DNA of 64,000 nt from an uncultured bacterium (lineage in GTDB: Bacteria; Eisenbacteria; RBG-16-71-46; CAIMUX01; WJJG01). The notes under the pieces are model-generated. The model ran no database searches and was not told the DNA's origin. It saw nothing but the letters and a program-made list of their open reading frames with translations. A program made the translations under genes and the position numbers. Numbering within the stretch: position 1 is the first letter of the stretch; every line of letters starts with the position of its first letter. Location: contig CAZPGB010000032.1 of NCBI GenBank assembly GCA_964585945.1, forward strand, positions 3,980-67,979, written 5' to 3'. Shown here one piece after another: positions 8,174 through 37,423 of this stretch.

Positions 8174-8376
8174 ACTCGGTCCTTTTCCCGATCCACACGA
8201 GTATCGAGTCCCTTTAGGAAGCCTCTCATTTGCTTCGTCGGACGGACAGGAATGAGCACGATACGGTCGCCGTAGACCACCACCTGGATTTTCTGTCCTG
8301 GAGACAATCCGAGCTTCTCCCTAACCTCTTTTGGTATAACGACTTGATACTTGGGCGAGACAGTTACTGCCGCCAT
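8170..8376 (-). CDS. vapB: AbrB/SpoVT-MazE-fold antitoxin VapB
   Basis: 68 aa with a swapped-hairpin motif (KYQVVIPKEVREKLGLSPGQKIQVVVYGDRIVLIPV). Its stop overlaps the vapC start. Confidence 0.85.
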   Translation of the reverse strand: MAAVTVSPKYQVVIPKEVREKLGLSPGQKIQVVVYGDRIVLIPVRPTKQMRGFLKGLDTRVDREKDRV

Positions 8377-8385
8377 GTTCCCCCC

Positions 8386-8422
8386 ATCGATAATATCTAT
8401 GTAATACGCGTAGCCTATCGAT
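8386..8422 (-). promoter_or_regulatory. Candidate VapB operator (inverted repeat ATCGATA-N23-TATCGAT)
   Basis: The inverted heptamers at 8386-8392 and 8416-8422 lie 10-46 nt upstream of the vapB start, in a locally AT-richer stretch. Confidence 0.3.
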
Positions 8423-8891
8423 TCCCGATCCCCTTGTCAAGTCCAGCCGATGGCAGCAGCGCGTTCAGATTGACTCGACCACCCCTCCAGGGAAGTGCCC
8501 GCCGGGGCTCCTGGCAATGGTCTTCCTGAGCTAGGAGGCTCGCCTTGCCGTGCTCCTCTTGATAGCAACATGCTATGGGTGATCCGATTCCCATGGATCT
8601 CTGTGTCGTTCTTTTGGTGTCGATCAACACAGGCGCATGCGTGATCACACTCATTCGAATTGGGCCAAATCAGAGGTTCTCGAACCGATTCGAAGCATCT
8701 TGGGCCCATTCGAGCGCAAGTTCAGTATCTCGTTTTGCGCAAGGGGCTTAGAGCGCCACAGCCCGCCTCTTCGTGCCCTGGCCATACCTCCGGGCTGCTC
8801 GTGCCCAGGGGCCGGTGGATCGTCACCGAGCAAACACTAGGCCCTCTGTCCGCGTCTAGTAGACTGGAAAAGCCCCCCGAAAGGAGATGTT

Positions 8892-18939: not shown

Positions 18940-18945
18940 GCAGGT

Positions 18946-20211: not shown

Positions 20212-20387
20212 GCCGGCCCTCCCTGCCGAATGGGTCCCCCGTGCGCCTCGCGGGGGCGATCGATCCAGCGGCGAAGTATAGAAACCGGGAAATCCTCTGT
20301 CATCCCTTAGCTTGGGCTCCGGGGCCCTCCTTCAGCAGCCACGCAGGCCGATTGACCCCCTTCGCGATCGGCGCCATCATCGCGGCC

Positions 20388-21344
20388 ATGCGGACCGAAG
20401 CGCGCTTCAGCGTCATCATCCCGGTCTTCAACAAGGAGGCCGTTCTGGCCCGGGCGGTCGAGAGTGCCCTGGGTCAGCGAGGTGTCGATGTGGAGGTGAT
20501 CTGCGTCGACGACGGCTCGACCGACGCAAGTCGCAAGCGCCTGGGAACCTGGGGCAATCGCATCCAGGTGATTGAGCAGCCGAATCGGGGACCCTCAGCC
20601 GCGCGCAATCGCGGCGTGGCCGCCGCCCGCTACGAGTGGGTGGCCTTCCTGGATGCCGACGACACCTGGGATCCGCACTATCTGGAGGCGGTGGCGCGCC
20701 TGCGAACGGCCCGCCCGGCGATCGCCTACGCGTTGGCCTCCTATCGGCGGATCAGCCGAGAACAGACGGTGATCATTCGCTTGGGCGATCGTGATCTGCC
20801 GTGGGATGCCCCCGAGGCACCCCGTGCGACGCGGCACGCCGCGGCCGCCCTGGCGCCCGGAATCGCCTCGGGCGCGATTGCTTGCTCGACCGATCTCTTC
20901 CGCGAGGTGGGCAGATTCGATGAGAGTTTGCCGCGCTGGGAGATCGCCGACCTGGTCTTCCGAATGCTGTGCGCGCGTGGGGAGGCTGGCGTCGTCGAAG
21001 AGCCGCTGGTCACGATCCACCACGATCCGGCCAACAGCCAGGCGGATCGTGAGGCACGCAACGTGAAAGCTCACGCGCGGCTGGCCGCGAGTCTTCTCAC
21101 CGCGGCCTCCGGGGTCACGCGACCCGAGGGCGGCGAGCTGAGGGCGGAGGCCGCGCAGGTGGCCTTGCGGTCGGCGCGCTGGTTGCTGCGCGAGGGCATG
21201 CGGCCTGCCGCCAAGGACTTGATACGGCGTCTGCCGCCGGAGAGCCCAGCCCCGCAGCGCTTCGCTACGCGGGTGGCCGCAACACTGCCCGCCGCCTTGG
21301 TCCGGTGTCTGTTCCCAGGTGGCTCGCGTCGCAAAGCGCCGTGA
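20388..21344 (+). CDS. Family 2 glycosyltransferase
   Basis: FSVIIPVFNKEAVLARAVESAL, VICVDDGSTD, NRGPSAARNRGV, VAFLDADD. The start is trimmed to the ATG at 20388. Confidence 0.85.
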   Translation: MRTEARFSVIIPVFNKEAVLARAVESALGQRGVDVEVICVDDGSTDASRKRLGTWGNRIQVIEQPNRGPSAARNRGVAAARYEWVAFLDADDTWDPHYLEAVARLRTARPAIAYALASYRRISREQTVIIRLGDRDLPWDAPEAPRATRHAAAALAPGIASGAIACSTDLFREVGRFDESLPRWEIADLVFRMLCARGEAGVVEEPLVTIHHDPANSQADREARNVKAHARLAASLLTAASGVTRPEGGELRAEAAQVALRSARWLLREGMRPAAKDLIRRLPPESPAPQRFATRVAATLPAALVRCLFPGGSRRKAP

Positions 21345-21376
21345 GGACCCCACGTGTTTGGGAGAAGAGTCTAGAC

Positions 21377-24241
21377 ATGCACAGCGCCTTCCATCCGATC
21401 GCGGCCCTCCTCCTGTCCGTTGCAGTCGAGGACCTGGAAGTAGCCACAGACGATGGCCTGGCATTATCCATCGATAGCACAGGAAGGGTGGCGAGTTGTC
21501 GTGTCGACAACCGGGACCTGCCGCAGCACGGACCTGCTGGAGGGTTCTTCGTCGCCGACGTGGCCGACATCCCGGCGCAGGACCTCGAGCAAATCGCGAA
21601 TCCCAGCTTCGAAGAGATCGAAGACGACATGCCGGTGGGTTGGGCGGTCGGTCGGGGCTGGAGCGTGGACCGCGGTACGGCCCGATCTGGAAAGCGCTCG
21701 ATGAAGGTCTCGATCCCCTCCTCGAGGGAAGACACATCGGGGAACCTGTCCGTCGATGTGCCGGTCGCACCCAACACGCCGTATCGTATTTCCATGTGGC
21801 TGCGCACCGAAGGTGGCGCGCCCTCCTTGTACATCCAGCAACTGGACGAGGGGGGTCAACCGCATCCAGATTACCCGCAGATGACCGCAAGCCACTCTCG
21901 ACGCCAGTCTGACTGGTTCGAGCTAACCAGATCTCTCACCACGTCCTTCTTCTGTCGGACGATCCGCGTGCGGACCAACCTCTGGCGGCAGGCAGGAAAC
22001 GCTTGGATCGACGACGTGTCGGTGGTGTGTCTGGATGATGATTACCTTTCCCCCCAACGCTTGGTCGCGGGAACCGTGCATCGCACACCCACCGGCTTGG
22101 AGCAGATCTGCGACCTTGAGGACCTTGCCCTCCGAATCCATGCAACCTACGCAATGAATAGGGATTACATCATCGTCGACGGTGACATCCAAGACACGTC
22201 CGGAAGAGATCGGGCGGTGAGCCTCTCGTTTCGCCTCCCCGTGAACGGGGCCGGCTGGACCTGGTTCGATGATCTTCAGAACGTGCAGGTCGTCGAGGAG
22301 GAGCTGCGCTACGGATCGGCGCGGTTGATGGGTCGGGACGATCCGACCCAGAGACGCACCATCGCCCTCTACCCGTTCGCAGCCATGGCCGACTCACAGT
22401 CCGGGCTCGCCTTGGCCGTACCGATGGACATGCCGCGTGCTGTTCGCCTGTGCTATGCAGCGGACCTCGGCTTCCTCGTCAACTACGAGTTCGGTCTGAC
22501 GCAAGCGACGTCGAAGTTTCCCAGGCAAGCCTCGTTTCGGTTCTTCATCTACCGCATCGATCCCCGCTGGGGCTTCCGCTCGGCTGCCGACCGCTACTAC
22601 CAGCATCATCGCGACTTCTTCACAAAACGAACCGATCCGGAAGGTGGCATTGGGCCCATGGTGGTCTGCGACCGGGAGGTGTCGCGCAATCAACTCATCC
22701 CGGCCTTGGCTGACTTCAAATGGAGCCATCGCCATCTAGTCGCCTGCAATCACCGTGAGCTCGTGAAGCTGCTTCAGTACTCGGAGTTCATCGGATGGTG
22801 GGGGTCGGCGCTCGGGATCGGAGTTCAAGAAGCCGAGCATCAAGTGACCCAGGAAGAGGCCTGGGCTCATGTGGAGGACGTCGCTTTCAGTGATCACCCG
22901 CAACGGGAAGTGGCACGCTGCATCCTGAACTGCGCCCTGCACGATCGGGAAGGCAGGCGCAGGTTGCACTGGAACTACGTTCCCCGGTGGGGCGGCTACC
23001 ATTACCTCTGCAACCCCGATCCCGACATCACGGGTATCGGCGGGCGCGTAAATCGCTACACGCTCACCCGTGACCGCGAAATGGCGAAGGTCGCGCCGTA
23101 TGGGCTCGACGGCATGCGGTTCGATGGTCCCATCGGTTTCGCCACCGACAACTTTCGCCGAGAACATTTCCAGTGGGCGGATCATCCGCTGGCATTCGAC
23201 CACGTGTCGAAGAAGCCGGTGATGCCACTGGACTTCTCGGCCTATGAGTGCGCGCAGGCCATCGCCGACGACATGCATCGCGGGGGCAAGCTTGTCGCTT
23301 CGAACTACAGCACCATCGACGATCCGAGCGACATCTTTCATATCCAGCTCCTCGACGTGGTGGGCAATGAAATGCTCGGCGCATGGACGACCAACGCCAA
23401 GCTGGCCCTGCAGCGCACCTTGGCGCACCAGAAGACCGTCGTCATGTCATGGCAGGAGGTGAAGAGGGACTGGCCGCCAGAACGGATTGAGCGTGAGATG
23501 AAACAGGCCATGTTCTATGGCACGTTCTACTACCTCAGCGACATGGACCCCGCTCTCTACGAGCGGTGGCACCCCTTGACCCAACGGTTGGCCGCGGCGG
23601 GGTGGGAACCGATCAGTCATGCTTCGACCGATAGCCCCGCGATCCTGGTGGAGAGATTCGGGAGGATCGGCGACCGCAATCTGCACTTCACGTTGCGCAA
23701 TGAGGGTACGCCCGATTCCTGCCAGGTGAGATTCGATGCGCTGGCGCTGGGTTTGAATGTGGAACCCATGCCCACCGTGTGGTGGATGTGGGACGCGCAA
23801 ACGCATGTCGAGATTGCTGCCAGGCGTATCGGGGCGCACTGGTCTGCAAAGCTGCCCCTGCCTGAAGATGATACGGTCGTTCTGCGCATCGCAACGGCCT
23901 CTGGGGTTGCATTGGACCATCTCTTTGGGGTTCGTGATCATCTTCAGAGAGCGTACAACTATCGCCGGGACCTTGAGCAAGTGGGTGTCACCGCGACGTC
24001 CGTGGATTACGAGCGCGTTGCTGATGAGCTTGATCGGGCTATCGCGGCGTTACGATCGAAGGCGCCCGAGGTGGATCACGTCCGGGAGCTTCTCACATCG
24101 ATGTCCAAGGGGCTGAGTGATCTGACCGTCAACGGGGAGGTCCCGGACCACAAGGACTGGGTGATGCGACAACGAGTCGCTTGCTCGGAGGTTCGAAGCG
24201 GATTGGATCGGGCGGCAGGGGCACTGGGGGCTCGGCCATGA
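21377..24241 (+). CDS. Large uncharacterised protein with an N-terminal CBM4/9/22-like jelly-roll and an unknown ~700-aa body
   Basis: Start MHSAFHPIAALLLSVAV with GGAGAAG upstream. CBM-like signature NPSFEE...MPVGW...GKRSMKV...YRISMWLRTEG...AWIDDVSVV. The body has no motif I can name (YPFAAMADSQSGLALAVPMDMP, RWGFRSAADRYYQHHRDFF). Confidence 0.7.
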   Translation: MHSAFHPIAALLLSVAVEDLEVATDDGLALSIDSTGRVASCRVDNRDLPQHGPAGGFFVADVADIPAQDLEQIANPSFEEIEDDMPVGWAVGRGWSVDRGTARSGKRSMKVSIPSSREDTSGNLSVDVPVAPNTPYRISMWLRTEGGAPSLYIQQLDEGGQPHPDYPQMTASHSRRQSDWFELTRSLTTSFFCRTIRVRTNLWRQAGNAWIDDVSVVCLDDDYLSPQRLVAGTVHRTPTGLEQICDLEDLALRIHATYAMNRDYIIVDGDIQDTSGRDRAVSLSFRLPVNGAGWTWFDDLQNVQVVEEELRYGSARLMGRDDPTQRRTIALYPFAAMADSQSGLALAVPMDMPRAVRLCYAADLGFLVNYEFGLTQATSKFPRQASFRFFIYRIDPRWGFRSAADRYYQHHRDFFTKRTDPEGGIGPMVVCDREVSRNQLIPALADFKWSHRHLVACNHRELVKLLQYSEFIGWWGSALGIGVQEAEHQVTQEEAWAHVEDVAFSDHPQREVARCILNCALHDREGRRRLHWNYVPRWGGYHYLCNPDPDITGIGGRVNRYTLTRDREMAKVAPYGLDGMRFDGPIGFATDNFRREHFQWADHPLAFDHVSKKPVMPLDFSAYECAQAIADDMHRGGKLVASNYSTIDDPSDIFHIQLLDVVGNEMLGAWTTNAKLALQRTLAHQKTVVMSWQEVKRDWPPERIEREMKQAMFYGTFYYLSDMDPALYERWHPLTQRLAAAGWEPISHASTDSPAILVERFGRIGDRNLHFTLRNEGTPDSCQVRFDALALGLNVEPMPTVWWMWDAQTHVEIAARRIGAHWSAKLPLPEDDTVVLRIATASGVALDHLFGVRDHLQRAYNYRRDLEQVGVTATSVDYERVADELDRAIAALRSKAPEVDHVRELLTSMSKGLSDLTVNGEVPDHKDWVMRQRVACSEVRSGLDRAAGALGARP

Positions 24242-24388
24242 GCGTCCTGGGGAGAGCCGCGTCTCGATGACGTGATGTGGTTCGGCCTGATTGCTATACT
24301 GTGGACAGTGAACAAGATAACTGGCGTTGGCGACTGCACCCAGGAGCGAGTCGGGGCGCGATGCTCTGACGAATTGAAGGAGGCCCCC

Positions 24389-26959
24389 ATGATACGCAAG
24401 GCGCGGTCAACCTGCCGCCTCAATCCCGGAAGTCTCCACGGAAGAAGAAGTTGGAGGACATGCATGGGTTCTGTGGTCTGCCTTCTGGCGGCAGCCGTAG
24501 CCGGTGCGTGTCCCGCGGAAGCGGAGTGCATCCATTACGAGGACTACCTGCACCGCGTGTGTCAGGTGGCCACGCCGGGGGAGGCCCTCGGTGTGGCGAT
24601 ATCGGGCATCCGCGCCTATGTCGCCGACGGCAGCGGTGGACTCCTGGTGATCGATCTCACCGACCTCGAGAGCCCGCAGACCGTCGGCGGTGTAAGCACC
24701 ACGGGCAGCGCCTGGGCGGTGGTCGTGGAGGCCGACTACGCTTATGTCGCCGACGGAGATTCCGGTCTCCAGGTGATCGACATCGGAGATCCCCAGAACC
24801 CCGAGATCGTGGGTCATGTGGACACACCCGGGCTGGCCCGGGGCATCGCCGTCTCCGGCGCCTACGCCTTTGTCGCGGATGATGACTCCGGCCTCCAGGT
24901 CATCGACATCACGGACCCCGAGAATCCTCAGATCGCGGGAAGTGCGGACACGCCGGGCAACGCCCAGCGGTTGGCGGTCTCCGGCGACCACGTCTATGTC
25001 GCGGACGGGGGTTCGGGTCTCCAGGTGGTCGACATCGCGGATCCCCAGAATCCCCAGATCGTGGGCAGCGTTGTTCCGCCGGGTGGCGCCAACGACGTCG
25101 CGGTGTCCGGGGACTATGCCTACGCAACGAGCAATGGGAGCGGTCCCGGTTACGGCTTCCAGGTGATCGACATCGTGGATCCCACCCAGCCCGAGGTTGT
25201 CGGCAACCTGGGCACCGGCAACACCACCTGGGGACTGGCCGTTGCGGGCACGCACGCTTACGTCCGAACCTGGGGTTCGGGACTCGATACGTACAAGCGC
25301 AGCCTTACGGTCATCGACGTTGCGAACCCGCAAGACCCTGTTCGAGTCGGCAGTGTGTATACCCCGGGCAGCGATCAGCCTACGCCGTGGGCCGTGACCA
25401 TCTCGGGATCGCACGTCTATGTCGCCGACAACGACCAGGGTCTCCAGGTCATCGATGCCAGCCACCACGCGCCCCCTGAGATTCTTGGGGACATTCTTGG
25501 CGGTGACATCTCCAGCATTGAAGTAGCGGTAGGGGAGCCTCACGTTTATGCCACGGTCCGTGGCGCAGATACGTACTTCTTCGCGGTCGATGTCCTTGAC
25601 CCCAGCAATCCAGAGATCGTGAGCAGCACGCTACTCAGTAGTAGCTCCGAAGATGGGATTGGGGGCTTGGCCGTCTCGAGCACCCACGCTTATGTTGCAG
25701 GGTATTTCGAAGCTGAGCCCGAACCCTTTCTTCTCAAGGTCATCGACATCACCAGTCCTGAAGCCCCCCTTATTCTGGGCAGCGGGTCCACACAGGATTT
25801 CGCACGGGGAGTGGCGCTTTCGAGCACGCATGCCTATGTTGCGGCCTCCGGCGCCGGTCTTCAGGTGATCGACATCACCGATCCTGAGAGCCCGCAGAAC
25901 GTGGGCGCCGCGCAAACGCCCGGACGAGCCTGGGGCATCGCCCTATCCGCGACCCACGCCTATGTCGCGGACCGCGATCACGGTCTCCAAGCGATCGATG
26001 TCACGGATCCCACAGACCCCCAGATCGTGGGGAGCGCGGATCTGCCGGGTGGGGCCTGGCATGTGAAGATCTCGGGATCTCATGCCTACGTGGCGGGCGG
26101 GAACTCGGGCCTGCACGTCCTCGATATCACCGACCCCCAGAATCCCCAGACCGTGTCCAGTCTGGAGACCCCCGGCTTCGCGCAGGAAGTGGCGATCTCC
26201 GGCCCCGTCGCATACGTCGCGATCGGCGGTGGCGGACTCTTCGTGATCGACGTCACGACCCCGGAGGATCCCGAGATCCTGGGCGGAGTGACAACGGACG
26301 GCGATATCGTGGGCGTGGCCGTCTCGAGCACGCATGCGTACATGGCCAACCTGCCGCAAGCCATCCAAATCGTGCCTCTGCAGTGCGTGCCCGTACCCAT
26401 CGCCACGGTGACGGACCTCCAGGCGTTCCCCATGGAGGAAGGCGTTTCCCTCTCCTGGCACGGCGGATTCGATCCCGAGCTCTTCGAGGTGTTCGTCTAC
26501 CGGCGGGCAATCGGTGAGTCCTGGGAGTGCCTGACCGCCGCGCCCCTCACGGGGGGACCCGACTTCGAATTCGTGGACTCGACTGTCGAACCCGGAGAGT
26601 GCTACGAATACGAGATCGAGCTGCTGGCCGGAGACGGCCGTCGGGAGCGGTTCGGTCCGGTGACCTGCGAGTTGCGGCTGAGCCACGCCCTCCTGTTGGA
26701 CATCAGGCCGATCGTCACAAGCGGCGCGGTACAGATAGGCCTCAGTTTGCCGCGCTCAAGCGACGTCGAGCTTTCGCTGCACGACCCCGCCGGCCGGCGC
26801 CTGGGCTCTGTGGATTGGCGAGCGCTGCCGGCAGGACGGCAGGTGCTCGACCTGGACCTGTCGCGGGTGGTGGGAGCACGCGCCGCTGCGGGGCTCTACT
26901 TCATCAGGCTGGAGTTCGCGCAGGAACGGGTCTGCCGCAGGATCTTGCTGACGCGTTGA
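24389..26959 (+). CDS. LVIVD-repeat beta-propeller protein with a FlgD-Ig/T9SS-like C-terminal domain
   Basis: AAGGAGG lies before the ATG at 24389. More than a dozen repeats of A(Y/H)VAD..SGLQVIDI(T/G)DP.NPQIVG. The C-terminus reads ...AGLYFIRLEFAQERVCRRILLTR. Confidence 0.85.
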   Translation: MIRKARSTCRLNPGSLHGRRSWRTCMGSVVCLLAAAVAGACPAEAECIHYEDYLHRVCQVATPGEALGVAISGIRAYVADGSGGLLVIDLTDLESPQTVGGVSTTGSAWAVVVEADYAYVADGDSGLQVIDIGDPQNPEIVGHVDTPGLARGIAVSGAYAFVADDDSGLQVIDITDPENPQIAGSADTPGNAQRLAVSGDHVYVADGGSGLQVVDIADPQNPQIVGSVVPPGGANDVAVSGDYAYATSNGSGPGYGFQVIDIVDPTQPEVVGNLGTGNTTWGLAVAGTHAYVRTWGSGLDTYKRSLTVIDVANPQDPVRVGSVYTPGSDQPTPWAVTISGSHVYVADNDQGLQVIDASHHAPPEILGDILGGDISSIEVAVGEPHVYATVRGADTYFFAVDVLDPSNPEIVSSTLLSSSSEDGIGGLAVSSTHAYVAGYFEAEPEPFLLKVIDITSPEAPLILGSGSTQDFARGVALSSTHAYVAASGAGLQVIDITDPESPQNVGAAQTPGRAWGIALSATHAYVADRDHGLQAIDVTDPTDPQIVGSADLPGGAWHVKISGSHAYVAGGNSGLHVLDITDPQNPQTVSSLETPGFAQEVAISGPVAYVAIGGGGLFVIDVTTPEDPEILGGVTTDGDIVGVAVSSTHAYMANLPQAIQIVPLQCVPVPIATVTDLQAFPMEEGVSLSWHGGFDPELFEVFVYRRAIGESWECLTAAPLTGGPDFEFVDSTVEPGECYEYEIELLAGDGRRERFGPVTCELRLSHALLLDIRPIVTSGAVQIGLSLPRSSDVELSLHDPAGRRLGSVDWRALPAGRQVLDLDLSRVVGARAAAGLYFIRLEFAQERVCRRILLTR

Positions 26960-27372
26960 GAAGACCGTTCACCGCGACCCCGGCCAAGGGCGGTGACCGT
27001 CCAAGCATCGATGCCGAGATCCGCGGTCTCGTGCGACAGGGACACTTCCCGAGCGTGGCCGGGCCCCCATCGGTGTAACTCGTCCTGCCGAGCGAGGCAC
27101 ACATCGGCCCTGAAGCCGGTCTCGTGGTGGATCAGGTTGAAGTGGCCTCTTTCGGCACGTTGCTGCTCCAGCCGGAGGATCTCACTGGGTGGGCGGTAGA
27201 GGTCATCCAGGGGAAAGGCTGCGATTCGGGCATGGAGGAAGATCTCCTTGACCTTCTGCTCGACCTGTTCTGGCGTCCAGTCAGGGTGTTGATCGCGTAG
27301 CGTAGCCGCCCTGAGCTTCCTGGCCACCCAGTAGAGCCGAAATGCCGTGCGCAGCTTCTGTTCGCCGGTCAT
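26896..27372 (-). CDS. Hypothetical protein, likely a remnant joining a small helical protein to a nucleotidyltransferase-like fragment
   Basis: The first ~50 aa (MTGEQKLRTAFRLYWVARKLRAATLRDQHPDWTPEQVEQKVKEIFLHAR) resemble a small stand-alone protein type. The following GHFNLIHHETGFRADVCLARQDELHRW resembles the C-terminal part of NTase-fold proteins. The tail overlaps the LVIVD gene end by 64 nt. Confidence 0.3.
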   Translation of the reverse strand: MTGEQKLRTAFRLYWVARKLRAATLRDQHPDWTPEQVEQKVKEIFLHARIAAFPLDDLYRPPSEILRLEQQRAERGHFNLIHHETGFRADVCLARQDELHRWGPGHAREVSLSHETADLGIDAWTVTALGRGRGERSSQRVSKILRQTRSCANSSLMK

Positions 27373-27780
27373 GCGCCTTAGGGTGGCGATGTATTCAGGG
27401 CGTCAGATGCGATCCCATGCGATGAGCATACCGGTTCTCCGTTTCACACCTCTACAACCTGAGGCGATCCGCCGGCTACCTTCGCGATCGGCGACGGATC
27501 ACCCAGACCCATCTGACACCTGGCGTCATGTTCGAATCCCTGGATGACATCGCCCACTCGATCACCGGCAATGAGGCTGCCAGACGACTCAGCCAGGCCC
27601 GGAAGCGTCTCTTGCGGGCCGTGGCCGAACGGGAGCACAACATCTCCTCAGGGCTTCTTTCCCCAGTTGGAAGAGAAGATCCCTTCAGGCTCATTCCTGG
27701 ATTGGAGAAGACTATTGCCGTTTCAGTGAGGGATCCTTGTCATCGACCTGGCCTCCGGCGCTGATTCGATTCCTGATTCT

Positions 27781-29124
27781 TCACGCTGTCGGCTCCCTGC
27801 GCGTCAACGCCAGGCCGACAATGGCCCAGAAATAGACGATGACCGGCGGCAGTCCATACGGGTTGCTGGATAATGAAGCCGCCAGCAGGCCCCAGAATAC
27901 CGCCACGGCGGTGGCCACGACGGGATCGCGGTTGAATCGCGGAGTTCGCAGCCGGTTGGTCAGACGCCGCACCACAGTGATCAACAGGACCAGATGCCCA
28001 AGCAGTCCAACGATCCCGATCTCGACCAGCTGGTTGACCCAGAGCTGGTGGGCGGCATAGCCCTGCAGGTACTTCACATGCTCGATGAACGTCCCCGGTC
28101 CCGAACCGAAGATCGGACGCTGAACGAACACCTGCAAAGAATGGGCCCACAATCCGAAGCGCCAGAGCATGCTGTTGGTGCCGTAGGTGGATTCACCCAA
28201 AGTGGTGAACCGCCCTCTGAACGCCGGCACCAGAAGCATCAAGAGAGCAAAAAGGAGTGGGCCGCCGATGAGCAGCAGCTTGCGATGTCCCCGCAGCCAG
28301 AGCAGCACTGCAGCCGCGACGGCGAACGCCAGCCAGCCGCCGCGTGCGAAGGTGAAGAACAGGGCCAGGACCTGCAACCCAAGCAGTGGAGCCAGATTGC
28401 GCCTGCGGAAGGGCCTGCCGGCCAGCAGCAGACTGAGCGTCAAGGTCGCCACGACCGCCAGATAGAGTGAGAACGTGACCGGGTGAGACATGGTGGCCGC
28501 GATGCGGTCGACGGATTCCTCCGTGCTCACCGGCGCGCGCGAACCCAGCATCGCCGGCACATCGGCGATCAAACCGTAGAATCCGGCCAGGATGGGAAAC
28601 AGGGAGGAAAGGAGAATCGCTCCCAGCAGCAGGCGCCGCTCGCGGGGCGCCATGGCCAGAGAGCTGATGAAGACGAAAACGATCAGGTACTCCAGGTCGC
28701 GGACCCAGCGCTTGAAGCTCGTGAGCGGTGAGACGCTCAAGACGGTCGACACCAGCGACAACACGAGGAACAGGAGATAGGCGACGGCGATCGGATCCCG
28801 CAACAGCGGCCGCCCCTCCATGGCGCAGCGGACCACGAGCGCCCAGAGCAAGAGGGCGGAAACGAGAACATCGAGGGTGAGTCTGGCGGGACCCAGTTTG
28901 ACGAAGTCCAGATTCACGATCATCAGGAAGAAGAGCGCCAGCACGGGCACCGGATCGGTCAGCAGACGCCGGCCGACGACCAGCAGTGCCAGCAGAGCTG
29001 CCGCAGAGAAGAAGAAGACCGGCTGGTCCAGCGCCAGAGCCATACCGGCGCCGATCGCCGCACAGGCGAACGTCGCGATGGCGGTGGTCAAGGACCAGCC
29101 GCGGAGGTTATGTGCCGGCATCAT
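27781..29124 (-). CDS. Wzy_C-family O-antigen ligase/polymerase-like membrane protein (intact copy)
   Basis: 447 aa and polytopic, with an extracytoplasmic loop between FARGGWLAFAVAAAVLLW and AAHQLWVNQLVEIGIVGLLG that is typical of Wzy_C. The start is trimmed to the ATGATG at 29119-29124, which overlaps the stop of the upstream pseudo-GT frame. Confidence 0.85.
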   Translation of the reverse strand: MMPAHNLRGWSLTTAIATFACAAIGAGMALALDQPVFFFSAAALLALLVVGRRLLTDPVPVLALFFLMIVNLDFVKLGPARLTLDVLVSALLLWALVVRCAMEGRPLLRDPIAVAYLLFLVLSLVSTVLSVSPLTSFKRWVRDLEYLIVFVFISSLAMAPRERRLLLGAILLSSLFPILAGFYGLIADVPAMLGSRAPVSTEESVDRIAATMSHPVTFSLYLAVVATLTLSLLLAGRPFRRRNLAPLLGLQVLALFFTFARGGWLAFAVAAAVLLWLRGHRKLLLIGGPLLFALLMLLVPAFRGRFTTLGESTYGTNSMLWRFGLWAHSLQVFVQRPIFGSGPGTFIEHVKYLQGYAAHQLWVNQLVEIGIVGLLGHLVLLITVVRRLTNRLRTPRFNRDPVVATAVAVFWGLLAASLSSNPYGLPPVIVYFWAIVGLALTRREPTA

Positions 29125-29705
29125 CGCCGCAACTCCCAGAACAGCCTTGCCAGACCCGCGCCCACCTGCTGACTGCTCAGAGGATGGTCGGCCACAGACG
29201 GGGCGGGTCCCCCGGGATGTGCTCGCCACCAGTCCGCCAGCTCATTGACCGCGGGCAGCCCGGCACCCCAGGTATTCGTAACGGTTTCCGGGGATATGCA
29301 CAACATCCCAGGCGCGATTGATGACGATGCCAGCATGGGCGTTGCGCATCAGTTCAGCCGCCCGCTCTGGCAGCAGCAGACCGTGGACGGGGTGGCGCTC
29401 ACCGGAGCCGCCCAGAAAAGCCTCCCACGCCCCCTCCTAGCTCTTGCCGGCCACTTCGGGCAAGGCGTGCCGGAACCGGCCGGGGTCGGGATCGAACATG
29501 TTCGGGATGACCCGCAGCTTGGGCGCCAATTCCGGCCGGCGCGCCGCCAGCGACGACGCTGGTACCAGGCGATCGGACCGAGCCCGCGCATCCGCTCGCT
29601 CGTGCTCGTGGCTTCTTGGCCGGAAAAGTCCCTGGGCGGAGACGCGCGTCGCGACAGACGTAGCAGCACCCGACAGTCCTCCTCGGTCGGCACCCGACGG
29701 GCAAG
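29121..29705 (-). pseudogene. Decayed copy of the glycosyltransferase half of the Wzx-GT gene
   Basis: The minus-strand frames read PTEEDCRVLLRLSRR, ERMRGLGPIAWYQRR, KLRVIPNMFDP, EVAGKS*EGAWE (TAG at 29437-29439), HGLLLPERAAELMRNAHAGIVINRAWDVVHIPGNRYEY and ADHPLSSQQVGAGLARLFWELRR. They are colinear with 15585-16958 but carry large deletions, a nonsense codon and frame changes. Confidence 0.65.
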
Positions 29706-30381
29706 TATAGAAACAGGGGAAGCCACTGTCGTCCTGAAGGTTGCATGGGTCTCGCCGTGTTCGGCCACGGCCACCGGTAAGGCGGGCATTGGCTTGGCGT
29801 ACTGCTCCCCGTCACGCCATGTTCTGATCTGCGTGCGGTTCGCGATGTTGGCGGTGGAGCAGAGGCGCGGATTCCTGGTCGCGACACGCGCTCTTCTCCG
29901 GGCCGCCGCATGAGCCCCTGCTCCGCCTCTGCTGATCCCGCTTCGCTCGGCGCGCACCGTCGAGTGATGCACGTGCATTTGCGCCGCGATCGTCCCCCCA
30001 CGCCAGATAGGCCAAGCAAGCAAATGTCACCGCTCCGGCAAAATACCCCTGCCGGCCGTCGCCTCCCTCCCTCTCTCGATGGTCAGCAGCCCATTCCGCC
30101 GGCCTCGCTCGAGCCAGTCGTACCTTCGGTTGCTTGCTCGGCGGAGGGGGTAAGCGATGCGTCACCTTTCTGGCCTGGCGCTCGCGGCAGCGTAGCTGGC
30201 GGGCGGCATGGTCAAATTCGCCGCGGAAGTTCCGTTGGTACGGCCGGCTGGCTCTCCGGCGTCGCTGCGTAACGCTGCTCCCGAGCGCAGTCCTCGCCGC
30301 AGTCAATGTTCCCGTGATTGCACGATCGGCAGATGGCCACCAGGCAGTGACATCGTGCGCAGTCGGTGACAGCGATGGCCC

Positions 30382-31377
30382 ATGAAGGCTTGGGAAATGA
30401 CGGTCTCCGGTCCATCGCCTTTCCGGCGGCAGGACCTTTCTAATAGACCGAGCAGAAAACGCCAGAAGAAGATACGGAGATCAAACCCGAGCCAAGGGCA
30501 CAACTCCCTCAGACCCAAGAGCACCGGCGAGAGCCGGCGGCGAAGAGCGTTTCCCGCCAAGAATGCGCGCGTTCAGGGTTCCACCGACACGCAGATTGCC
30601 GTTGACGCAGGGGGAAAGAAACTGTACATCGTGCAGCCGAATGGACATGCATTCCAGTTAGGGCGCAGGACGCGGCCGAACCGGGGGCGCGCATTCTTGA
30701 CCACATCTGAATATGTTCAGAGCGTCGTGGATAAGTATCTGGTCGGCTCGCCGGACCGACCGCTCAAGGTGCTTAACTGCGGCTGCGGCTATGTCCGGCC
30801 CATCCCGCTCGGCGGCAAGGTTGAGTGGTTCGGGCTCGACATTTCGGCGGAGCAGTTGGCGCGCAATCAATATCTGGATCACAAGCTGCTCGGGGACATC
30901 CAGACCTTTGCCGACTTTGCCGAGGAGTTCGACCTGGTGATCTCCATCGACGTACTCGAGCATCTGGACCGGCCCCGGGATGCTGTTGCCAACATGGTCC
31001 GGGCCGCGACGGCGGGCGGCCTGCTAATTCTCAAGCTCCCCAATGTGCTATCGGTCAAAGGCATGATCACCAAGCTCACGCCGCTGCGGTTTCACGAGTT
31101 CGTTTATCGCCACGTTTACCGCATGCGGCCCGACCAGCGCCCGTTCCGCACCTATCACCGCCTATCCAATCGGTCCGGCGCCCTGCGGAAACAGCTCCAG
31201 ACACTGGGCTGCGAACTGCTTGAAGTTCGCCTGTTTACCGTTCGCTCCGATAGGTGGGCGCACCGGCTGAACTACTGGATCAGCCGGATGACCCACTGGC
31301 TGACGCTAGGCCGCCTGGGACACTCCGAGCTGATCATCGCCGCACGCAAGAATGGGCCGGCTGCAGCCCAGAGCTGA
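30382..31377 (+). CDS. Class I SAM-dependent methyltransferase
   Basis: Motif I LKVLNCGCGYV, FDLVISIDVLEHL, GGLLILKLPN. The first ~80 codons are Arg/Lys-rich and probably untranslated. A candidate start is the GTG at 30631. Confidence 0.7.
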   Translation: MKAWEMTVSGPSPFRRQDLSNRPSRKRQKKIRRSNPSQGHNSLRPKSTGESRRRRAFPAKNARVQGSTDTQIAVDAGGKKLYIVQPNGHAFQLGRRTRPNRGRAFLTTSEYVQSVVDKYLVGSPDRPLKVLNCGCGYVRPIPLGGKVEWFGLDISAEQLARNQYLDHKLLGDIQTFADFAEEFDLVISIDVLEHLDRPRDAVANMVRAATAGGLLILKLPNVLSVKGMITKLTPLRFHEFVYRHVYRMRPDQRPFRTYHRLSNRSGALRKQLQTLGCELLEVRLFTVRSDRWAHRLNYWISRMTHWLTLGRLGHSELIIAARKNGPAAAQS

Positions 31378-32149
31378 GCGCACGACCTGCCTGCGATTCA
31401 GGCGATTACGCCTTGCCCTGCCGCAGCGCTTGCGGCCTGTCGAGAGGGCAGCATCGACGGGTCCCAACACACAATGAGCTTCCGCACAGCAGATTGTCCG
31501 GGAGATGGTTCAGGCGCAACGACAACACATTGCTGAGGGCGAGCTGATGCATGCACCTGGCCCTCATCCGGCAGACTTTGGAGCGAGTGCGTGATCGAAA
31601 GGCATTGAAAACCGGTTCTGCTTGTTTCTTCGGATGTACAACCCGACTGATACACAAGTCTGCAGAGCCCATCCTGTGCGTCCCGAAGACCTCATCCGTG
31701 GTCCCGAGCTACCGTCCGATGTCTTGCTGCCGCCGCGGAATCGGATCTGGGGGAGTCGGCTGCGATCGGAATCCCGACGTGGCAAGGGTGCCGCGAGTGG
31801 TGAGACCGCTCCGCGCGCGACGCGGGTATACCGGTGCGCCGGACGCGAGGCGTTCAATCAGGCATTGCCTCTGGCTGCGACGTGCGCGTAGTGACGGCGC
31901 AAGCCGCTGAGGTGCGCGATTTCGACGACGCGGCCCTGGCCCCCGGGGTCGGCCCTCCGAATGTACGGTCCGTCGTCGGAGACCGCGTGGACGCCGCTAC
32001 CGAAGATCTTCACTGCAATCCTCCGGTGAGCTCGCATTGATTGGGCGTCCATGTCATGGGGGATGCCGCTGAATTCTCAGGACCTCTCATTGGTGGTGAG
32101 GTCGCGGGGGCAATGACTCGGGTTGCAGATCCGGCGGCAATCGGCCGGC

Positions 32150-32562
32150 TCACTCCCTTACAGCTTCCGGAAGTCGATCAAGCACTGCTTCATACACAGC
32201 GCGAGCCATTTCGAGGGCTTGCGTGCCCTCATGGAGCTGTGGCGTCTCCGGCTCACTCGGATAGCGGAAGACCCAGGCAAACTGGGTCAGGTCTGCCGCC
32301 TGTAGAACCAGTTGCCCAGGGATGCATCCAACGTTTCACCGGCCTGCCCCAGTTCACGGAGATTGTGCGGCTCGCGAAACGGCACGTCATGCCATACGAG
32401 GAACGCCTTCCATGATTTCTCAACCGCCTGCTGGTAATGGAAGAGGACGCTGCGGGGCTGCGGGCGCTCGGCGGCGAGGAGGATCGCTGCGGCTTAGAGA
32501 TCAGCCTTCACGCGGTCGAGCCATGCCCGACACTCGGCCACTCTCGCGGGGTAATGCGGCAT
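32150..32562 (-). pseudogene. HEPN-domain toxin gene remnant (nonsense plus frameshift)
   Basis: My translation reads MPHYPARVAECRAWLDRVKADL*AAAILLAAERPQPRSVLFHYQQAVEKSWKAFLVWHDVPFREPHNLRELGQAG. After a frame change it continues LTQFAWVFRYPSEPETPQLHEGTQALEMARAVYEAVLDRL. The layout is classic HEPN but interrupted. Confidence 0.55.
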
Positions 32563-32868
32563 GCCGCAGTCTCCCTTCACGAACCACCGTGGCCGGAAAA
32601 GACCCTTTGAGATGCAGCCGCTCGTGGAAGGAAGCGTCGTCCCACACAACGACGTCCACTGCGGCAGGAATGCCGCGCAATGCGCGAAAGCCCTTTTGCG
32701 AGAGTCGATATCGGGGTTCGGTCGGATGATCGACGAGCACGAGCAGATCGTAGTCGCTATCCGGCCTTGCATCCCCCGTTGCGCGGGATCCAAAGAGATA
32801 GATGCGGGTGGGGTTCGATGTGGCTGCCAGCCGGCTCGTGCGGAACTCGATCGTGCATGCCTGTTGAA
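32501..32868 (-). pseudogene. Minimal nucleotidyltransferase (MNT) antitoxin gene remnant
   Basis: The frame reads ...RIYLFGSRATGDARPDSDYDLLVLVDHPTEPRYRLSQKGFRALRGIPAAVDVVVWD (GS...D.D NTase core). However, it opens right after a TAG (32869-32871) with no start codon before the catalytic motif, and further stops lie upstream. Confidence 0.55.
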
Positions 32869-33350
32869 ACTATGCCGATCCGGATAGTGGCCGTCAAGAA
32901 GCAGGGGATCAAGCCGGTCGGCCCCTTTCGCCATGAACGGCCCCGGTCTGGCTATGCACCTCGGGTATGGCGCAGCGCAGCAGCTCACCCCAGGAGGCAT
33001 CCCCGGCCGGATCAGGGGCCGCGGTTCACGCTTCCCCGCGGCCCGCGCACACCTACGAGCGCCACCCGGGGGCGGCCAAGGTGGTGCTGGAGCCGGGCTG
33101 GTCGGACGCCTTCGTCGTGCTCGACGTGCAGACCATGGTGTTCCCACACGCCGAGGGTTGAGCTTGAGGGTGGCTTCGGTCCAGCCACCTTCTGCCCACC
33201 ACATCGCTCCAGAAGGAGCCGCGCCCTGGTGCGACGTGTGCGTATCTGTCTTCAATAACCGAGGTTGCGGTTCATCGCTCCATGCTTCTCAATCACTGAG
33301 TATTCTGTTGACTCCCGGTGGGAGGCGCGATTGGCCTGCCCCCGTGAACG

Positions 33351-34530
33351 GTGCCGATCGACAGGGCGCTCGTGGGTGAGCTGGAGAAACGACTTCGCGG
33401 ACACCAGCTCATCCAGATCATCGCCGGACCGCGGCAGGTCGGGAAGACCACGGCGGCCCGCACCGTAGAGACGCGCTGGTCGGGACCCACCCACTACGCC
33501 GCGGCCGATGTCAGTCCCCCCCGGACCGGAGTGGATCGAGACCCAGTGGCAGATCGCCCGCCGGGCGAGCGCCTCAGGCAACGTGCTGTTGATCCTCGAT
33601 GAGGTCCAGAAGGTCACCGGCTGGAACGAGGTGGTCAAGGCCCACTGGGATGAGGACCGCGCCAAGCGGCGGCGCATTCGTGTCGTCCTGGTGGGTTCCT
33701 CCGCGATGCTCCTGACGCGTGGCGCCACGGAGAGCCTGCCCGGGCGTTTTTTCCTGAATCGATGCCCCCACAGGTCTTTTGCTGAGTGCCGCGCGGCCTT
33801 CGGGTGGGACTTGGAGCAATGGCTGTACTTCGGCGGCTATCCAGGTGCCGCCCCGTTCGTGAACGATCCCGACACGCGGCGCGCCTACATCTTGGACTCC
33901 CTGACTGAGACCGTGATCTCCAGGGACGTGCTCCAGGCCGAGCGGATTGCCAAGCCGGCGCTGCTGCGCAATCTCTTCGGCCTCGCGACTCGCTTTCCGG
34001 CACAGATCCTGTCGTACAACAAGATGCTGGGGCAGCTTCAGGATGCAGGCAACACGACCACCCTCGCTCACTACCTGCGGCTTCTGGAAACGGCCTTCCT
34101 GATCTCCGGGCTTGAACAGTTCTCTGCCGGGGGCGCCCGCCGCCGGGGGGCCAGTCCAAAGCTGGTGCTGTGGAACAACGCCCTGATCAGCGCGCCCAGC
34201 CTTCGCACGCTCGAGGAGGCACGGCGCGACGCGGACCTGTGGGGGCGCTGGGTCGAGAATGCCGTCGGTGCGCATCTGCTCAATCACCTCCAGGGCCTGG
34301 CCTACGAGGTGTTCTACTGGCGGCACCGCAAAGACGAGCTGGACTTCGTCGTGCGAGCGGGGGAGCGAGTCTGGGCCCTTGAGGTCAAGAGCAGCCGCCC
34401 CCGCCGCGCACCCGAGCTGGCGGCGTTTCGGAAGGAGCACCCCGAATCACGGAGCCTCATCATCGGCAGCCGAGGGGTTCCGCTGGAGGAGTTCTTCGCC
34501 GCGGATCCGCGGGCGTGGTTTGGGGGGTAG
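33351..34530 (+). pseudogene. AAA+ ATPase (AAA_14 + DUF4143 type) interrupted by a +1 frameshift in a C7 run
   Basis: The P-loop segment IIAGPRQVGKTTAA is in frame 0 (33351-33520). Walker B LLILDEVQK and the DUF4143-like body (YFGGYPGAAPF..., ELDFVV...ALEVKSS) are in frame +1 from 33508. The frames switch at CCCCCCC 33516-33522, and removing one C restores ...VSPPGPEWIETQW. Confidence 0.7.
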
Positions 34531-35189
34531 TCGACAGTGGCGTGACAGGCCGAGAGAGGCCTCGGTCTCCACGATCAGGATGCTCGGATCAAGGCGTACG
34601 GTCATGGAGACGCTCATTGACGCTGGCGAGCCGATGGGGCCCGCCCGTCCATGGGTCTCCCGATGGGCAGGGCGGGAGGTCTGTCCGCTGACAACGGTCG
34701 GGGGGCGCCGCACACTTGGGTAGCGTGGATCGCTCGGAATCCGTGCGAGGGGGCCGGTGCGGCGCACGACGAGGCCCGTGAACCGTATGACCGGGATCAT
34801 CTGATCGGGGGCTGCGGGGGCATTTCGCAGTTAAAGTTTCCGTCTATGGAGGAGAATGTCAAGGCAGCTCTTTCCCTGCCACTGGATGTCCTTGGTCTTG
34901 CATCCGGCGTCCGCCTCCGCCGAGCACTCTGGTGGGTTCACCCTGCATAAGCGTACACGCGCGACCTGGATCGAGAGGTTGCTTCCGCCACGCGCGGATC
35001 CGTCATGACTTGTGATCCGTTCATCCCTGGCTCCCCGGTCGACATCACAGCCGTGCAGTGCTCCACGTTCATGTTGGAACCATCCTTCCTTTGGGGATTC
35101 TTGCGCCCATCGCTTTGTACGGCTCTCCGGGGGGCACAGCCTATCCTCGGGAACTCCCGGTAAATCGTCCGGGACCAGAAACTCGATGG

Positions 35190-35734
35190 ATGCTGTCGCG
35201 CGATCGTCAGTCTGGCCAGGTTCGGCTTCGTACCCCCATCCAGCAATCGCTGGTCGTGACGGTACAATGGTTCCTCCTCCCGCGCGCGTTGGATCACCGT
35301 GGTGGCTGCACCCTCGAAGATCCGCTTCAGCGCGCGGTTGGAATAGCTCCTTCATTGACCGCTTCGGCAGCTCCCGCAGGAGCGCAAACTCCCCGAGTTC
35401 CTTGTAGACCCGTGTCTGGATCACCCCGGTCCGCAGGCTCTCGGCCAGACCAAAGGCGTCCCGCTGATCGTCGTTCGGCCCACGGCTCGCCCGGCCCCGA
35501 ACACCTGTCACCACGATCTGCTGGAGATGGGGTGCCAGCACTTCGTAGAGCCGGCCGGCATGGGTGCCCTCTTCCAGACACAGGTGCTGCGGCTCGGGAA
35601 TCGTCTTGAGACAACCCACCAGAACTCCGGCGTTTGTCTCGAGCACCTGGGAGTGCAGTCGCTTACCGCTCGGCCCGACCACTGCAATCGTGCAGCTTGA
35701 CGCATGGGCGCTTGAGCCTGATCTGCAGGTCCAT
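35190..35734 (-). mobile_element. IS110-family transposase remnant (frameshifted, central domain deleted)
   Basis: GGAGG plus ATG at 35732-35734. The N-terminal DEDD-like part reads CTIAVVGPSGKRLHSQVLETNAGVLVGCLKTIPEPQHLCLEEGTHAGRLYEVLAPHLQQIVV...NDDQRDAFGLAESLRTGVIQTRVYKE. It jumps directly, in another frame, to the C-terminal tail LKRIFEGAATTVIQRAREEEPLYRHDQRLLDGGTKPNLARLTIARQ. Confidence 0.55.
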
Positions 35735-36099
35735 ATGCGTCCTCCGTTGACGCACAGGGTGGAGCTGCGAATGCAGTCACCGGAACCCTGCTCTCACACT
35801 GCGGAGCACGCCAGTTCTTCAAGGGGTGCCGATGAGGGAACCAGGTCTTGCCTGACCTCGCGGACACCATGCCCCCATGATGCCAATGCGCCACATCATG
35901 AAGTGCGCGGATCCCGATGTGCCTGCCGCCGATGTGGCCGGTTGACACGCTCCTCGCGGTCCACGAAATCCGTAAGTCCCTGCCGGCTCAGCCTGATCAC
36001 GACATGTCGAACCTGGCCTAGATACGTAATGTATGAGCGCATGAAGGCGAGGGCCGTGCCCCGCGAGCGCGCGCGGCACGGCCCCCTGGCGTCCAGTGT

Positions 36100-36807
36100 C
36101 TAACGGAAGAGCGACTTGACTGCCCCCCACGTTGACGACTCGGTGGGCGTCGCACACTCGATGATGTCGATCGTGGTGCTGAACATCACGCCACTGACGG
36201 CGAACCCGAGGTCACGGTTGTAGACCTGCAGGCTGTTCGTGCCGCAGTGCAGAAGGTCGGTGACATCCAGCCCCGACATGACCGTCTCCGTGGCGTAGTT
36301 GCCGCCGAAGATGCTCGGGCTGAGGGCCGTACCGTTCAGATAAACGCCATCGGGGTTCGGCCCCGAACCGGCCAGGTCGCCCAGGACGTCGTCGGTGACC
36401 CAGCAGAAGCTGAGCGTCGCCCGCTCGATGCAGCAGGTCTCGACATCGAAGTTGTAGCAGTAGAGCGCCGAGGACGGCGTGGCCACGGCGTCGATGCCGA
36501 TCCACTTGGCCTCCGGGTCGCACGGCAGCTGCGAGGCCCAGGCCGGATGCGGCTGGCAGACAACCGCGCTTGGCCCCGAGCATGCCATATCGAACTCGGT
36601 GGGCGTGAAGGGCTGCGCCGCGAGCGGCGTGGCGCCGCTACCAACGAGCATGGTGATGAACGGATCGGTGTTTCCCACGGGAGCGTTTCCGCTGCGCAGG
36701 ACGATGGTCTCGGCCCAGGCGTTCGATGCGCTGATCATGACGGCGAACACGACGAAAACGAGAGCGATCTGCGACAGGCTTGAGATCACACGGTTTCTCG
36801 AGTACAT
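36100..36807 (-). CDS. Secreted Cys-rich hypothetical protein
   Basis: Signal peptide MYSRNRVISSLSQIALVFVVFAVMISASNAWA. The mature part has eleven Cys and the C-terminus is ...ECATPTESSTWGAVKSLFR. No family recognised. Confidence 0.6.
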   Translation of the reverse strand: MYSRNRVISSLSQIALVFVVFAVMISASNAWAETIVLRSGNAPVGNTDPFITMLVGSGATPLAAQPFTPTEFDMACSGPSAVVCQPHPAWASQLPCDPEAKWIGIDAVATPSSALYCYNFDVETCCIERATLSFCWVTDDVLGDLAGSGPNPDGVYLNGTALSPSIFGGNYATETVMSGLDVTDLLHCGTNSLQVYNRDLGFAVSGVMFSTTIDIIECATPTESSTWGAVKSLFR

Positions 36808-37423
36808 TACAAGGCCTCCTCAATGAACGATGCGACATTGCATCACTGAGTCTGTTTCACCTCCGGATCCAAAGCCACACAACCGGATTGGGAAACCTCA
36901 CTCGAGCGTGGATGTAACGCGCCGCTCGCTTTTGGTTCCAGGGAATCGCTGCACACCCCTGCTTCCCTCCCAAGCGGTCAGGATTAGTCGGTGACTGCAA
37001 CATTCATGCCCTGCATGAGCGTTCTATCGCTTGCGAGTCGGATGCTCAGGTTGAAGGCTTCGGCCGTGGGGTAGTTCTCCGTAGCAGACGCAGCACCAGC
37101 TGAGCTTGGCCGCTCCGGCATTTCGGAATGTCTTGGCTACAGAACGCAGTAACTTTGATTTCGAATGCGTCTTGCGAGTCCTTGGCGATCGTCTTGGTCA
37201 TGGCTGTTCCAGCAGCAGACCGGGCTTGCGGAAGAAGTCGGCTGGTCCCGTCAGCTTGTTGCTCGGCAATCCGGCAGCCTCACTTTCATGCCAAGGTCCG
37301 ACCAGGAGCGAGTCTGCCGGAGGATGGTGCGAATGCGTTGACGAGACTGCTCAGCATGACGTGTGCTGTCCCGTCAGCGCCGCGACGCGTTGCGTTAAGC
37401 CTTGACTTGGCGCGCAGGGGGAT

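Follow-up and report, generated by a model that had tools for sequence, protein, structure and literature searches.

Inverted and diverged glycosyltransferase-Wzy_C arms with reciprocal gene decay in a polysaccharide cluster of an uncultured Eisenbacteria-like bacterium

The window, by which we mean the whole 64-kb stretch of DNA that was analysed, holds a Wzx/Wzy-type polysaccharide cluster of an uncultured Eisenbacteria-like bacterium. Its genes include a pyruvyl transferase, a fusion of Wzx with a glycosyltransferase (GT), a Wzz/PCP-like gene, a GT2, a Poly_export (Wza-like) gene, another GT4, and further GTs. Two parts of this cluster are colinear and inverted relative to each other in pairwise alignment: arm 1 at 15585-17410(+) and arm 2 at 29700-27781(-). 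The features concerned are the following.

14124-16958, plus strand: fusion of a Wzx flippase and a GT4 glycosyltransferase, 944 aa (GT944), intact (Pfam and alignment)
16955-17410, plus strand: 151-aa ORF, apparently a collapsed Wzy remnant in its ancestral slot (alignment to Wzy447)
17407-18939, plus strand: p510, a soluble conserved 510-aa protein, taken to mark the ancestral position of the module (homologues follow Wzy in relatives)
18946-20211, minus strand: Wzz/PCP-like gene
20274-20305, minus strand: second promoter-like element, lying about 60 nt ahead of the Wzz/PCP-like gene, a twin of 29703-29734 by similarity
27781-29124, minus strand: Wzy447, an intact 447-aa Wzy_C-family membrane protein (Pfam, homologues, fold)
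29121-29700, minus strand: GT pseudogene of arm 2 (alignment to GT944)
29703-29734, minus strand: 32-nt promoter-like element immediately ahead of arm 2 (sigma-70-like hexamers)

The colinearity of plus-strand 15585-17410 with minus-strand 27781-29705, noticed in a preliminary description of this DNA, is recovered by blastn, tblastx, global alignment, and tblastn. A blastn comparison of 14124-17600(+) with the reverse complement of 27500-31000 gives 7 colinear nucleotide HSPs of 69-80% identity, which are matched by the translated HSPs of tblastx on the same interval pair. Global alignment of 15500-17450 with the reverse complement of 27750-29850 yields 14 colinear blocks (15500-17412 versus 29809-27779), in which 796 of 1085 positions (73%) are identical. 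When the whole window is searched by tblastn, GT944 residues 705-864 and 902-943 match 29616-29266 and 29252-29127 (E=1.8e-40), and the 151-aa ORF matches 28116-27793 (E=2.7e-26), 28458-28144 (E=4e-18), and 29124-28969 (E=1.5e-4). The preliminary description had allowed that the similarity might be confined to short low-complexity stretches; the E-values and the colinearity over 14 blocks rule out both this and chance. DNA identity between the arms is 70-73% in aligned blocks, in line with the nucleotide divergence that had been seen by eye, and all four GT peptide pairs that had been quoted are found in both arms. Also conserved is the ATGATG junction at 16955 and at 29124, with its ATGA stop/start overlap and, in each arm, a GGGAG 9 nt upstream.

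The homology ends exactly at the Wzy stop codon on one side and at a promoter-like element on the other, and the flanks keep no record of the copying route. No homology past the arm ends is found by blastn/tblastx, global alignment, or tblastn. Likewise, tblastn over the window finds no trace of Wzx ahead of arm 2 (29744-30380) and none of p510 downstream of Wzy447. Near the arm ends there are no tRNA genes, Rfam families, or mobile-element genes, and no composition break is seen at arm 2.

The GT part of the 944-aa gene lies at about 15585-16958. Residues 12-344 of the protein match Pfam Polysacc_synt_3, Polysacc_synt, and MatE, hydrophobic segments reach residue 492, and Glyco_transf_4 is matched at residues 629-748 with 40.4 bits against a cutoff of 28.5. 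The GT part is colinear end to end with the stand-alone GTs of relatives (416-447 aa, 44-56% identity), with 89-92% of the length aligned and every invariant column shared. Profile and full-length colinearity together place it among GT4-type glycosyltransferases (PF13439/PF13579), and because of the end-to-end alignment with stand-alone GTs it can be regarded as intact. The gene is identical in an independent assembly, and GT944 is the sole intact GT of its subfamily found in the window. Since the homologous GTs of relatives stand alone, the Wzx-GT fusion appears to be a derived feature of this lineage.

Directly after GT944 comes the 151-aa ORF, which consists of residues 1-13, 223-269, and 357-447 of Wzy447 joined in frame. 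It differs from a full-length gene by the in-frame deletion of 209 codons and of a further 87 (296 in total). The first deletion falls between two short similar motifs of the intact genes, which suggests slippage or a short-homology deletion. The conserved NSxLWRxGLW...RPIFGSGPGTF loop and residues 14-222 are missing, just two segments exceed the hydropathy threshold, and about seven transmembrane segments are gone. As there is no Pfam or NCBIfam match and the loop is absent, the product is homologous to the Wzy_C family and not an intact member of it. No other short form like it occurs among 1.84 billion representative proteins, an absence that argues for a local remnant and not a protein family. 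ATGA overlaps are retained at both ends, no stop interrupts the 151 codons, and 12 of the 12 invariant family columns lying in the surviving segments are kept. With these three features preserved, the ORF may not be fully dead. The next gene, p510, contains an SGGLDS motif, lacks hydrophobic segments, and has no Pfam or NCBIfam match.

In arm 2, Wzy447 scores 60.5 bits against Pfam Wzy_C (PF04932; gathering score 31.7) over residues 284-411 of a 482-aa reading of the frame. It has at least nine hydrophobic segments, and its full-length homologues of 445-464 aa are 40-60% identical. An AlphaFold model (pLDDT 71, pTM 0.76) finds its best PDB match in WaaL, 7tpg_B (E=2.4e-6, TM 0.55/0.60). Profile, hydropathy, and predicted model thus agree on a polytopic membrane protein that passes the PF04932 threshold and has a WaaL-like fold. 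Like the WaaL/Wzy_C family (PF04932; PDB 7TPG), it scores above the Pfam cutoff and its model can be superposed on WaaL; unlike WaaL (PDB 7TPG), it has no sequence-level PDB match, even by profile, and only the fold search gave one. All of its NCBIfam matches fall under their cutoffs and do not tell polymerase, ligase, and O-oligosaccharyltransferase apart; Wzy447 is presumed to be a working polymerase or ligase. For an activity of this kind on undecaprenyl-linked repeat units the window offers genomic context, in its Wzx, Wzz/PCP-like, and Poly_export genes. Among the ORFs of the window scanned against Pfam it is the sole intact Wzy_C protein. A weak match at 53454-53930, considered as a second Wzy, lies inside a TrkH transporter gene and was rejected.

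Upstream of Wzy447, the GT of arm 2 has kept 585 of its roughly 1370 nt (about 43% in length, a net loss of about 785 nt), and its N-terminal half is nearly all missing. The preliminary description had reported deletions, a frame change, and a TAG. The deletions are present, and the TAG at 29439-29437 lies in the ancestral frame; in place of a single frame change there are two, the first near 29553 and the second between 29266 and 29252. An uninterrupted frame with both Rossmann-like halves, as expected of a GT4, is therefore not present. The gene caller of the public collection calls no gene in 29121-29700. On the opposite strand, a 222-aa frame overlying the remnant, 29245-29913(+), was set aside as a candidate gene; it has no Pfam match and is not publicly called. 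The final 71 codons of the dead GT read as an upstream ORF (29336-29121), closed by the ATGA that overlaps the start of Wzy447. The contrast that had been drawn between the arms holds: arm 1 combines an intact GT with a Wzy of 151 aa, and arm 2 an intact 447-aa Wzy_C protein with a wrecked GT.

Arm 2 begins with a 49-nt block that is 80% identical to the Wzx-GT linker (residues 489-505) and is missing from the close GT homologues, which are stand-alone. The tail of a Wzz gene was also considered as the source of this block, EEDRRVVLRLLRR; a comparison by eye only gave no convincing similarity. A Wzz tail in this place would be expected if arm 2 derived from an operon of the order Wzz-GT-Wzy, which L065 and L001 have.

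An error of sequencing or assembly behind the broken GT is ruled out. Over 8233-26958 and 27227-39124, both arms included, the window agrees at 100% identity with a separate assembly made from run SRR7048225, and the missing ~785 nt are too large a deletion to be read as an error of this kind. That resequencing might restore intact frames at 29121-29705 had been named as a possible objection; in the independent assembly the frames are still broken.

The element at 29703-29734 consists of ACGACA, a 17-nt spacer, and TATACT, and is the sole sigma-70-like match in 26800-30500. Its one twin in the window, 20274-20305(-), is identical at 26 of 32 positions. The alignment score of the pair is 39 against 21.7 +/- 2.4 for shuffles, and chance predicts 0.01 occurrences of the shared 12-nt core. 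Among the loci fetched from relatives, the element is absent from all except the same organism's own contigs. It is probably the promoter of a transcript that runs through the GT pseudogene into Wzy447.

The nearest homologues come from Candidatus Eisenbacteria MAGs and metagenomes, the closest at about 60% identity; scans of genomes and metagenomes found no nearer relative. Their arrangements, by locus, are as follows.

L003-L005 (closest, about 60% identity): GT-Wzy(447 aa)-p510, with 4-bp overlaps like those of arm 1
L008, L026, L029, L039: Wzy-p510
L001, L025, L065: GT-Wzy
L063: GT overlaps p510 directly and Wzy follows Wzz, an "empty slot" state

Homologues of p510, 49-58% identical, lie directly after Wzy in L003-L005, L008, L026, L029, and L039, and after the GT in L063. 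The usual order in Candidatus Eisenbacteria relatives is GT-Wzy-p510. Because of this order, the 151-aa ORF is best placed in the ancestral Wzy slot and Wzy447 would be the displaced copy. Gene order appears to be fluid in this cluster family. Single-copy, dual-intact, or inverted states, suggested as a comparison in the preliminary description, were not found in close kin, the nearest relatives being ~60% identical.

In neighbour-joining trees of the blocks surviving in both arms, the arms are sister to each other and L003 is the next branch. The trees rest on this method only and on 133-150 codons per gene. Bootstrap values for the arm pair are as follows.

GT tree: 0.76-0.88 with five taxa, 0.83 with eight taxa
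Wzy tree: 0.98-1.0 with five taxa, 0.98 with eight taxa
Concatenated tree: 0.99-1.0 with five taxa, 1.0 with eight taxa

An ancestor that the two arms share to the exclusion of every relative found is accordingly recovered with bootstrap 0.83-1.0, relative to a nearest outgroup of no more than about 60% identity. The component lost is a different one in each copy. Long-branch attraction or joint acceleration is an unlikely source of the grouping, because each single-gene tree contains only one decayed arm sequence. The sister grouping, together with the Wzx-GT linker block in arm 2, favours a duplication within the lineage, and on these grounds the arms appear to be true paralogues, and old ones.

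The divergence of the arms also bears on the timing of the losses. Synonymous differences between them are saturated (pS 0.64-0.65), pN is 0.22-0.23, and dN/dS is 0.18-0.19. Since dN/dS is low and the decayed branches are only modestly longer, most of the divergence would have arisen under protein-level constraint on both copies. In relative-rate counts, unique amino-acid changes number 20 in the GT remnant and 7 in the intact GT (p=0.019), and unique changes at second codon positions 20 and 5 (p=0.004); over the three codon positions those of the remnant are distributed 10/20/20. The 151-aa ORF has 25 unique amino-acid changes against 10-15 in Wzy447 (p=0.017-0.15) and 17 second-position changes against 6 (p=0.035). 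The second-position excess, about 3-fold in both decayed genes, shows up as relaxed constraint on both remnants in these counts. We infer that two working modules coexisted for long and that reciprocal loss came comparatively late. The earlier proposal of an old inverted duplication resolved by complementary loss is thus upheld as regards old paralogues that lost opposite genes; a quick resolution does not agree with a dN/dS of 0.18-0.19.

The history that fits these observations best, and that we consider probable, is that a GT-Wzy pair was duplicated in this lineage, that both copies were functional for long, and that reciprocal loss followed; the duplication itself and the order of events are reconstructed from the present sequences. 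The ancestor would have had a GT-Wzy-p510 module, as relatives still do. GT and Wzy, with ~100 nt of what is today the Wzx-GT linker, would have been duplicated, and the second copy would have come to lie 10.4 kb off in inverted orientation. Both copies would then have coded for working proteins over a long time. The Wzy in place would later have lost 296 codons by the two in-frame deletions, leaving the 151-aa shell, and the displaced GT more than half of its length plus its reading frame. Today the intact GT would be supplied by arm 1 and the only intact Wzy_C protein of the window by arm 2. The transcript of Wzy447 probably starts at the 29734-29703 element and crosses ~570 nt of dead GT, and translation would use the gene's own GGGAG ribosome-binding site. 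Both intact genes would serve one pathway that needs one gene from each arm, as far as the 64 kb of visible genome indicate.

Several points weigh against this scenario of duplication. The closest relative is only about 60% identical, and arm 2 could stem from a closer lineage that has escaped sampling. The trees, as said, are neighbour-joining only on short alignments, and no flanking homology records how the copy arose. The 151-aa ORF keeps its open frame, ATGA overlaps, and invariant residues, and the rest of the genome beyond the 64 kb might hold other GT or Wzy genes.

The first of these points leads to the alternative that arm 2 was acquired from a related lineage of Eisenbacteria within a second polysaccharide cluster, after which the redundant modules would each have lost one gene. 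In its favour, synonymous sites are saturated, and for the GT the pN between the arms (0.22) is about that between an arm and L003 (0.21-0.25). Homology is absent beyond the arm ends, a different upstream element is joined to arm 2, cluster order is highly variable across relatives, and minus-strand polysaccharide genes run from 45.7 kb down towards arm 2 and could represent the second cluster. Nevertheless, the arms are sister in all trees, with concatenated support of 1.0; arm 2 has the Wzx-GT linker block that is missing from the stand-alone GTs of relatives; and arm 2 shows neither a break in composition nor any mobile-element or tRNA genes. An import is therefore considered unlikely, and duplication within the lineage is preferred.

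A second alternative concerns the 151-aa ORF, which could have been retained under selection, either as a small membrane protein or as a spacer coupling translation of the Wzx-GT gene to that of p510. It is notable in this regard for two large deletions that are both in frame, for a stop-free frame with ATGA overlaps at both ends, and for its 12/12 invariant columns, when the GT remnant, of similar length, gained two frameshifts and a stop; its dN/dS against Wzy447 is 0.19. On the other hand, its excess of unique changes over Wzy447 (25 versus 10-15 amino acids, 17 versus 6 second positions) speaks against retention, and no similar short form is found in the 1.84 billion representatives. The product, with only two segments passing the hydropathy threshold, has lost the conserved loop along with about seven transmembrane segments. 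A spacer would moreover be dispensable, because the GT and p510 of L063 overlap with nothing between them. We regard such retention as rather improbable. More doubtful still is a combination in which the 151-aa shell is selected, as coupling spacer or small membrane protein, and the dead GT serves as a ~570-nt leader with the 71-codon upstream ORF. If this were true, both remnants would have gained secondary roles in expression.

Far less credible is an invertible segment, present or recent, that would be formed by the arms and would switch the expression of polysaccharide genes: the geometry alone (inverted arms around 10.4 kb of polysaccharide genes) and a break between the arms in one public assembly, near 27227-27254, speak for it, but the break falls outside both arms, both public contigs carry the flanks of the window on each arm, no recombinase is present among the genes called or scanned, and the arms, at ~70% identity, are too diverged to recombine homologously, their longest exact match being too short. 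The near-identical inverted repeats and the adjacent site-specific recombinase of an invertible DNA switch are thus not found here (the arms are 70-73% identical), and the earlier suggestion that the geometry could once have allowed inversion finds no support. The reading of an old duplication with later reciprocal loss is retained in what follows.

In reciprocal gene loss, or duplication-degeneration, paralogous copies lose different components and both loci become necessary. The present locus is similar in that there are two paralogous copies, each without a different component. It differs from duplication-degeneration in its unit, which is a two-gene operon segment and not a single gene with sub-functions, and in the apparently long coexistence of working copies in place of prompt partitioning.

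The closest known parallel concerns the O-antigen of Salmonella enterica. In groups B1 and D1, serial deletions have left the in-cluster wzy as a remnant, and the functional wzy is located far away, at rfc (Reeves et al. 2013, PMC3715488); a partial wzy duplication has been reported in group D3 (PMC3715488). As in B1/D1, the in-cluster polymerase gene is here reduced to a remnant and the polymerase, presumably Wzy447, is encoded elsewhere. In Salmonella, however, the replacement wzy is newly gained and gives a different polymerisation linkage, whereas Wzy447 is a diverged paralogue of the remnant. Furthermore, the copy here brought a GT that decayed too, so that the loss is reciprocal, and the host is uncultured and Eisenbacteria-like. 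The case adds to the Salmonella precedent a replacement that is a paralogue of the remnant and carries its own decayed GT. It represents ordinary gene-cluster decay and reveals no new mechanism.

In annotations, both the 151-aa ORF and the uncalled interval 29121-29700 ought to be marked as remnants, and the cluster should be read as dependent on the distant Wzy gene. The presumed working polymerase would now be displaced from the ancestral slot and stand under another promoter-like element. The locus offers a clean, datable example of polysaccharide cluster remodelling in a little-known uncultured phylum.

The Wzx flippase and the glycosyltransferase (GT) of the plus-strand arm of the inverted pair are encoded as one protein, which is followed, after the remnant of the Wzy_C gene, by p510, a protein also represented by a homologue in L063, a locus fetched from a relative. 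The features concerned are the following:

14124-16958, plus strand: Wzx flippase-GT4 glycosyltransferase fusion, a single protein of 944 aa
17407-18939, plus strand: p510, conserved soluble protein of 510 aa
5009-10850 of L063: region in which the genes of the GT and the p510 homologue overlap by 4 bp

Every close homologue of the GT that was found is a stand-alone protein (416-447 aa), its Wzx being the product of a separate gene, and the 944-aa fusion therefore seems to be specific to the lineage of the window. Among the homologues retrieved, two distant Wzx-GT fusions (823 and 846 aa) are present. Searches of p510 against Pfam and NCBIfam gave no match; the protein contains an SGGLDS motif, which we take to resemble that of PP-loop ATP pyrophosphatases and asparagine-synthase-like enzymes, and its neighbourhood with a Wzy or a GT is kept across Eisenbacteria loci. 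In L063, no Wzy lies between the GT and the p510 homologue, and Wzy_C is found two genes further on, after Wzz. This arrangement is a clean "empty slot" state, parallel to that of the window.

Between the two arms and at the inner side of the inverted copy, which retains the intact 447-aa Wzy_C-family protein (Wzy447; 27781-29124, minus strand), the following genes are found:

24272-26959, plus strand: LVIVD gene (product of 895 aa; LVIVD repeat in ten copies; FlgD_ig-like tail)
26896-27372, minus strand: 158-aa ORF between the LVIVD gene and Wzy447
27528-27764, plus strand: possible 78-aa ORF, on the strand opposite to the 158-aa ORF

The LVIVD repeats are accompanied in the DNA by a 126-nt periodic repeat (62-86% identity), and the end of the gene overlaps convergently with the 158-aa ORF by about 60 nt. 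Residues 1-46 of this ORF match the Rv0078B-related antitoxin family, and an NCBIfam search of the ORFs between the LVIVD gene and Wzy447 gave no match. The Logan assembly of SRR7048225, an independent public assembly, covers the locus in two contigs split at 27227-27254, outside both arms, with the LVIVD gene on one side and Wzy447 on the other. The contig ends share an overlap of about 28 nt, and strain variation and low coverage are possible causes of the split.

Elsewhere in the window, a CotH kinase-like protein adjoins the Poly_export gene:

39742-42834, minus strand: 1030-aa protein with CotH kinase-like, lamin-tail, chitobiase-C and FlgD_ig domains

Upstream of Wzy447, and upstream of the Wzz-like gene (18946-20211, minus strand), candidate regulatory features occur:

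29121-29336, minus strand: ATG-started ORF, the final 71 codons of the GT pseudogene region
20274-20305, minus strand: promoter-like 32-nt element, copy upstream of the Wzz-like gene
29703-29734, minus strand: other copy of the element, at the upstream edge of the inverted arm

The 71-codon ORF terminates in an ATGA overlap with the start of Wzy447 and could act as an upstream ORF. The 32-nt element, GGAYGACAGWGGMTTYCCCKGTTTCTATACTT, which was not found in any fetched relative, is present in exactly two copies in the window; the polysaccharide genes may have in it a promoter or regulator site in common.
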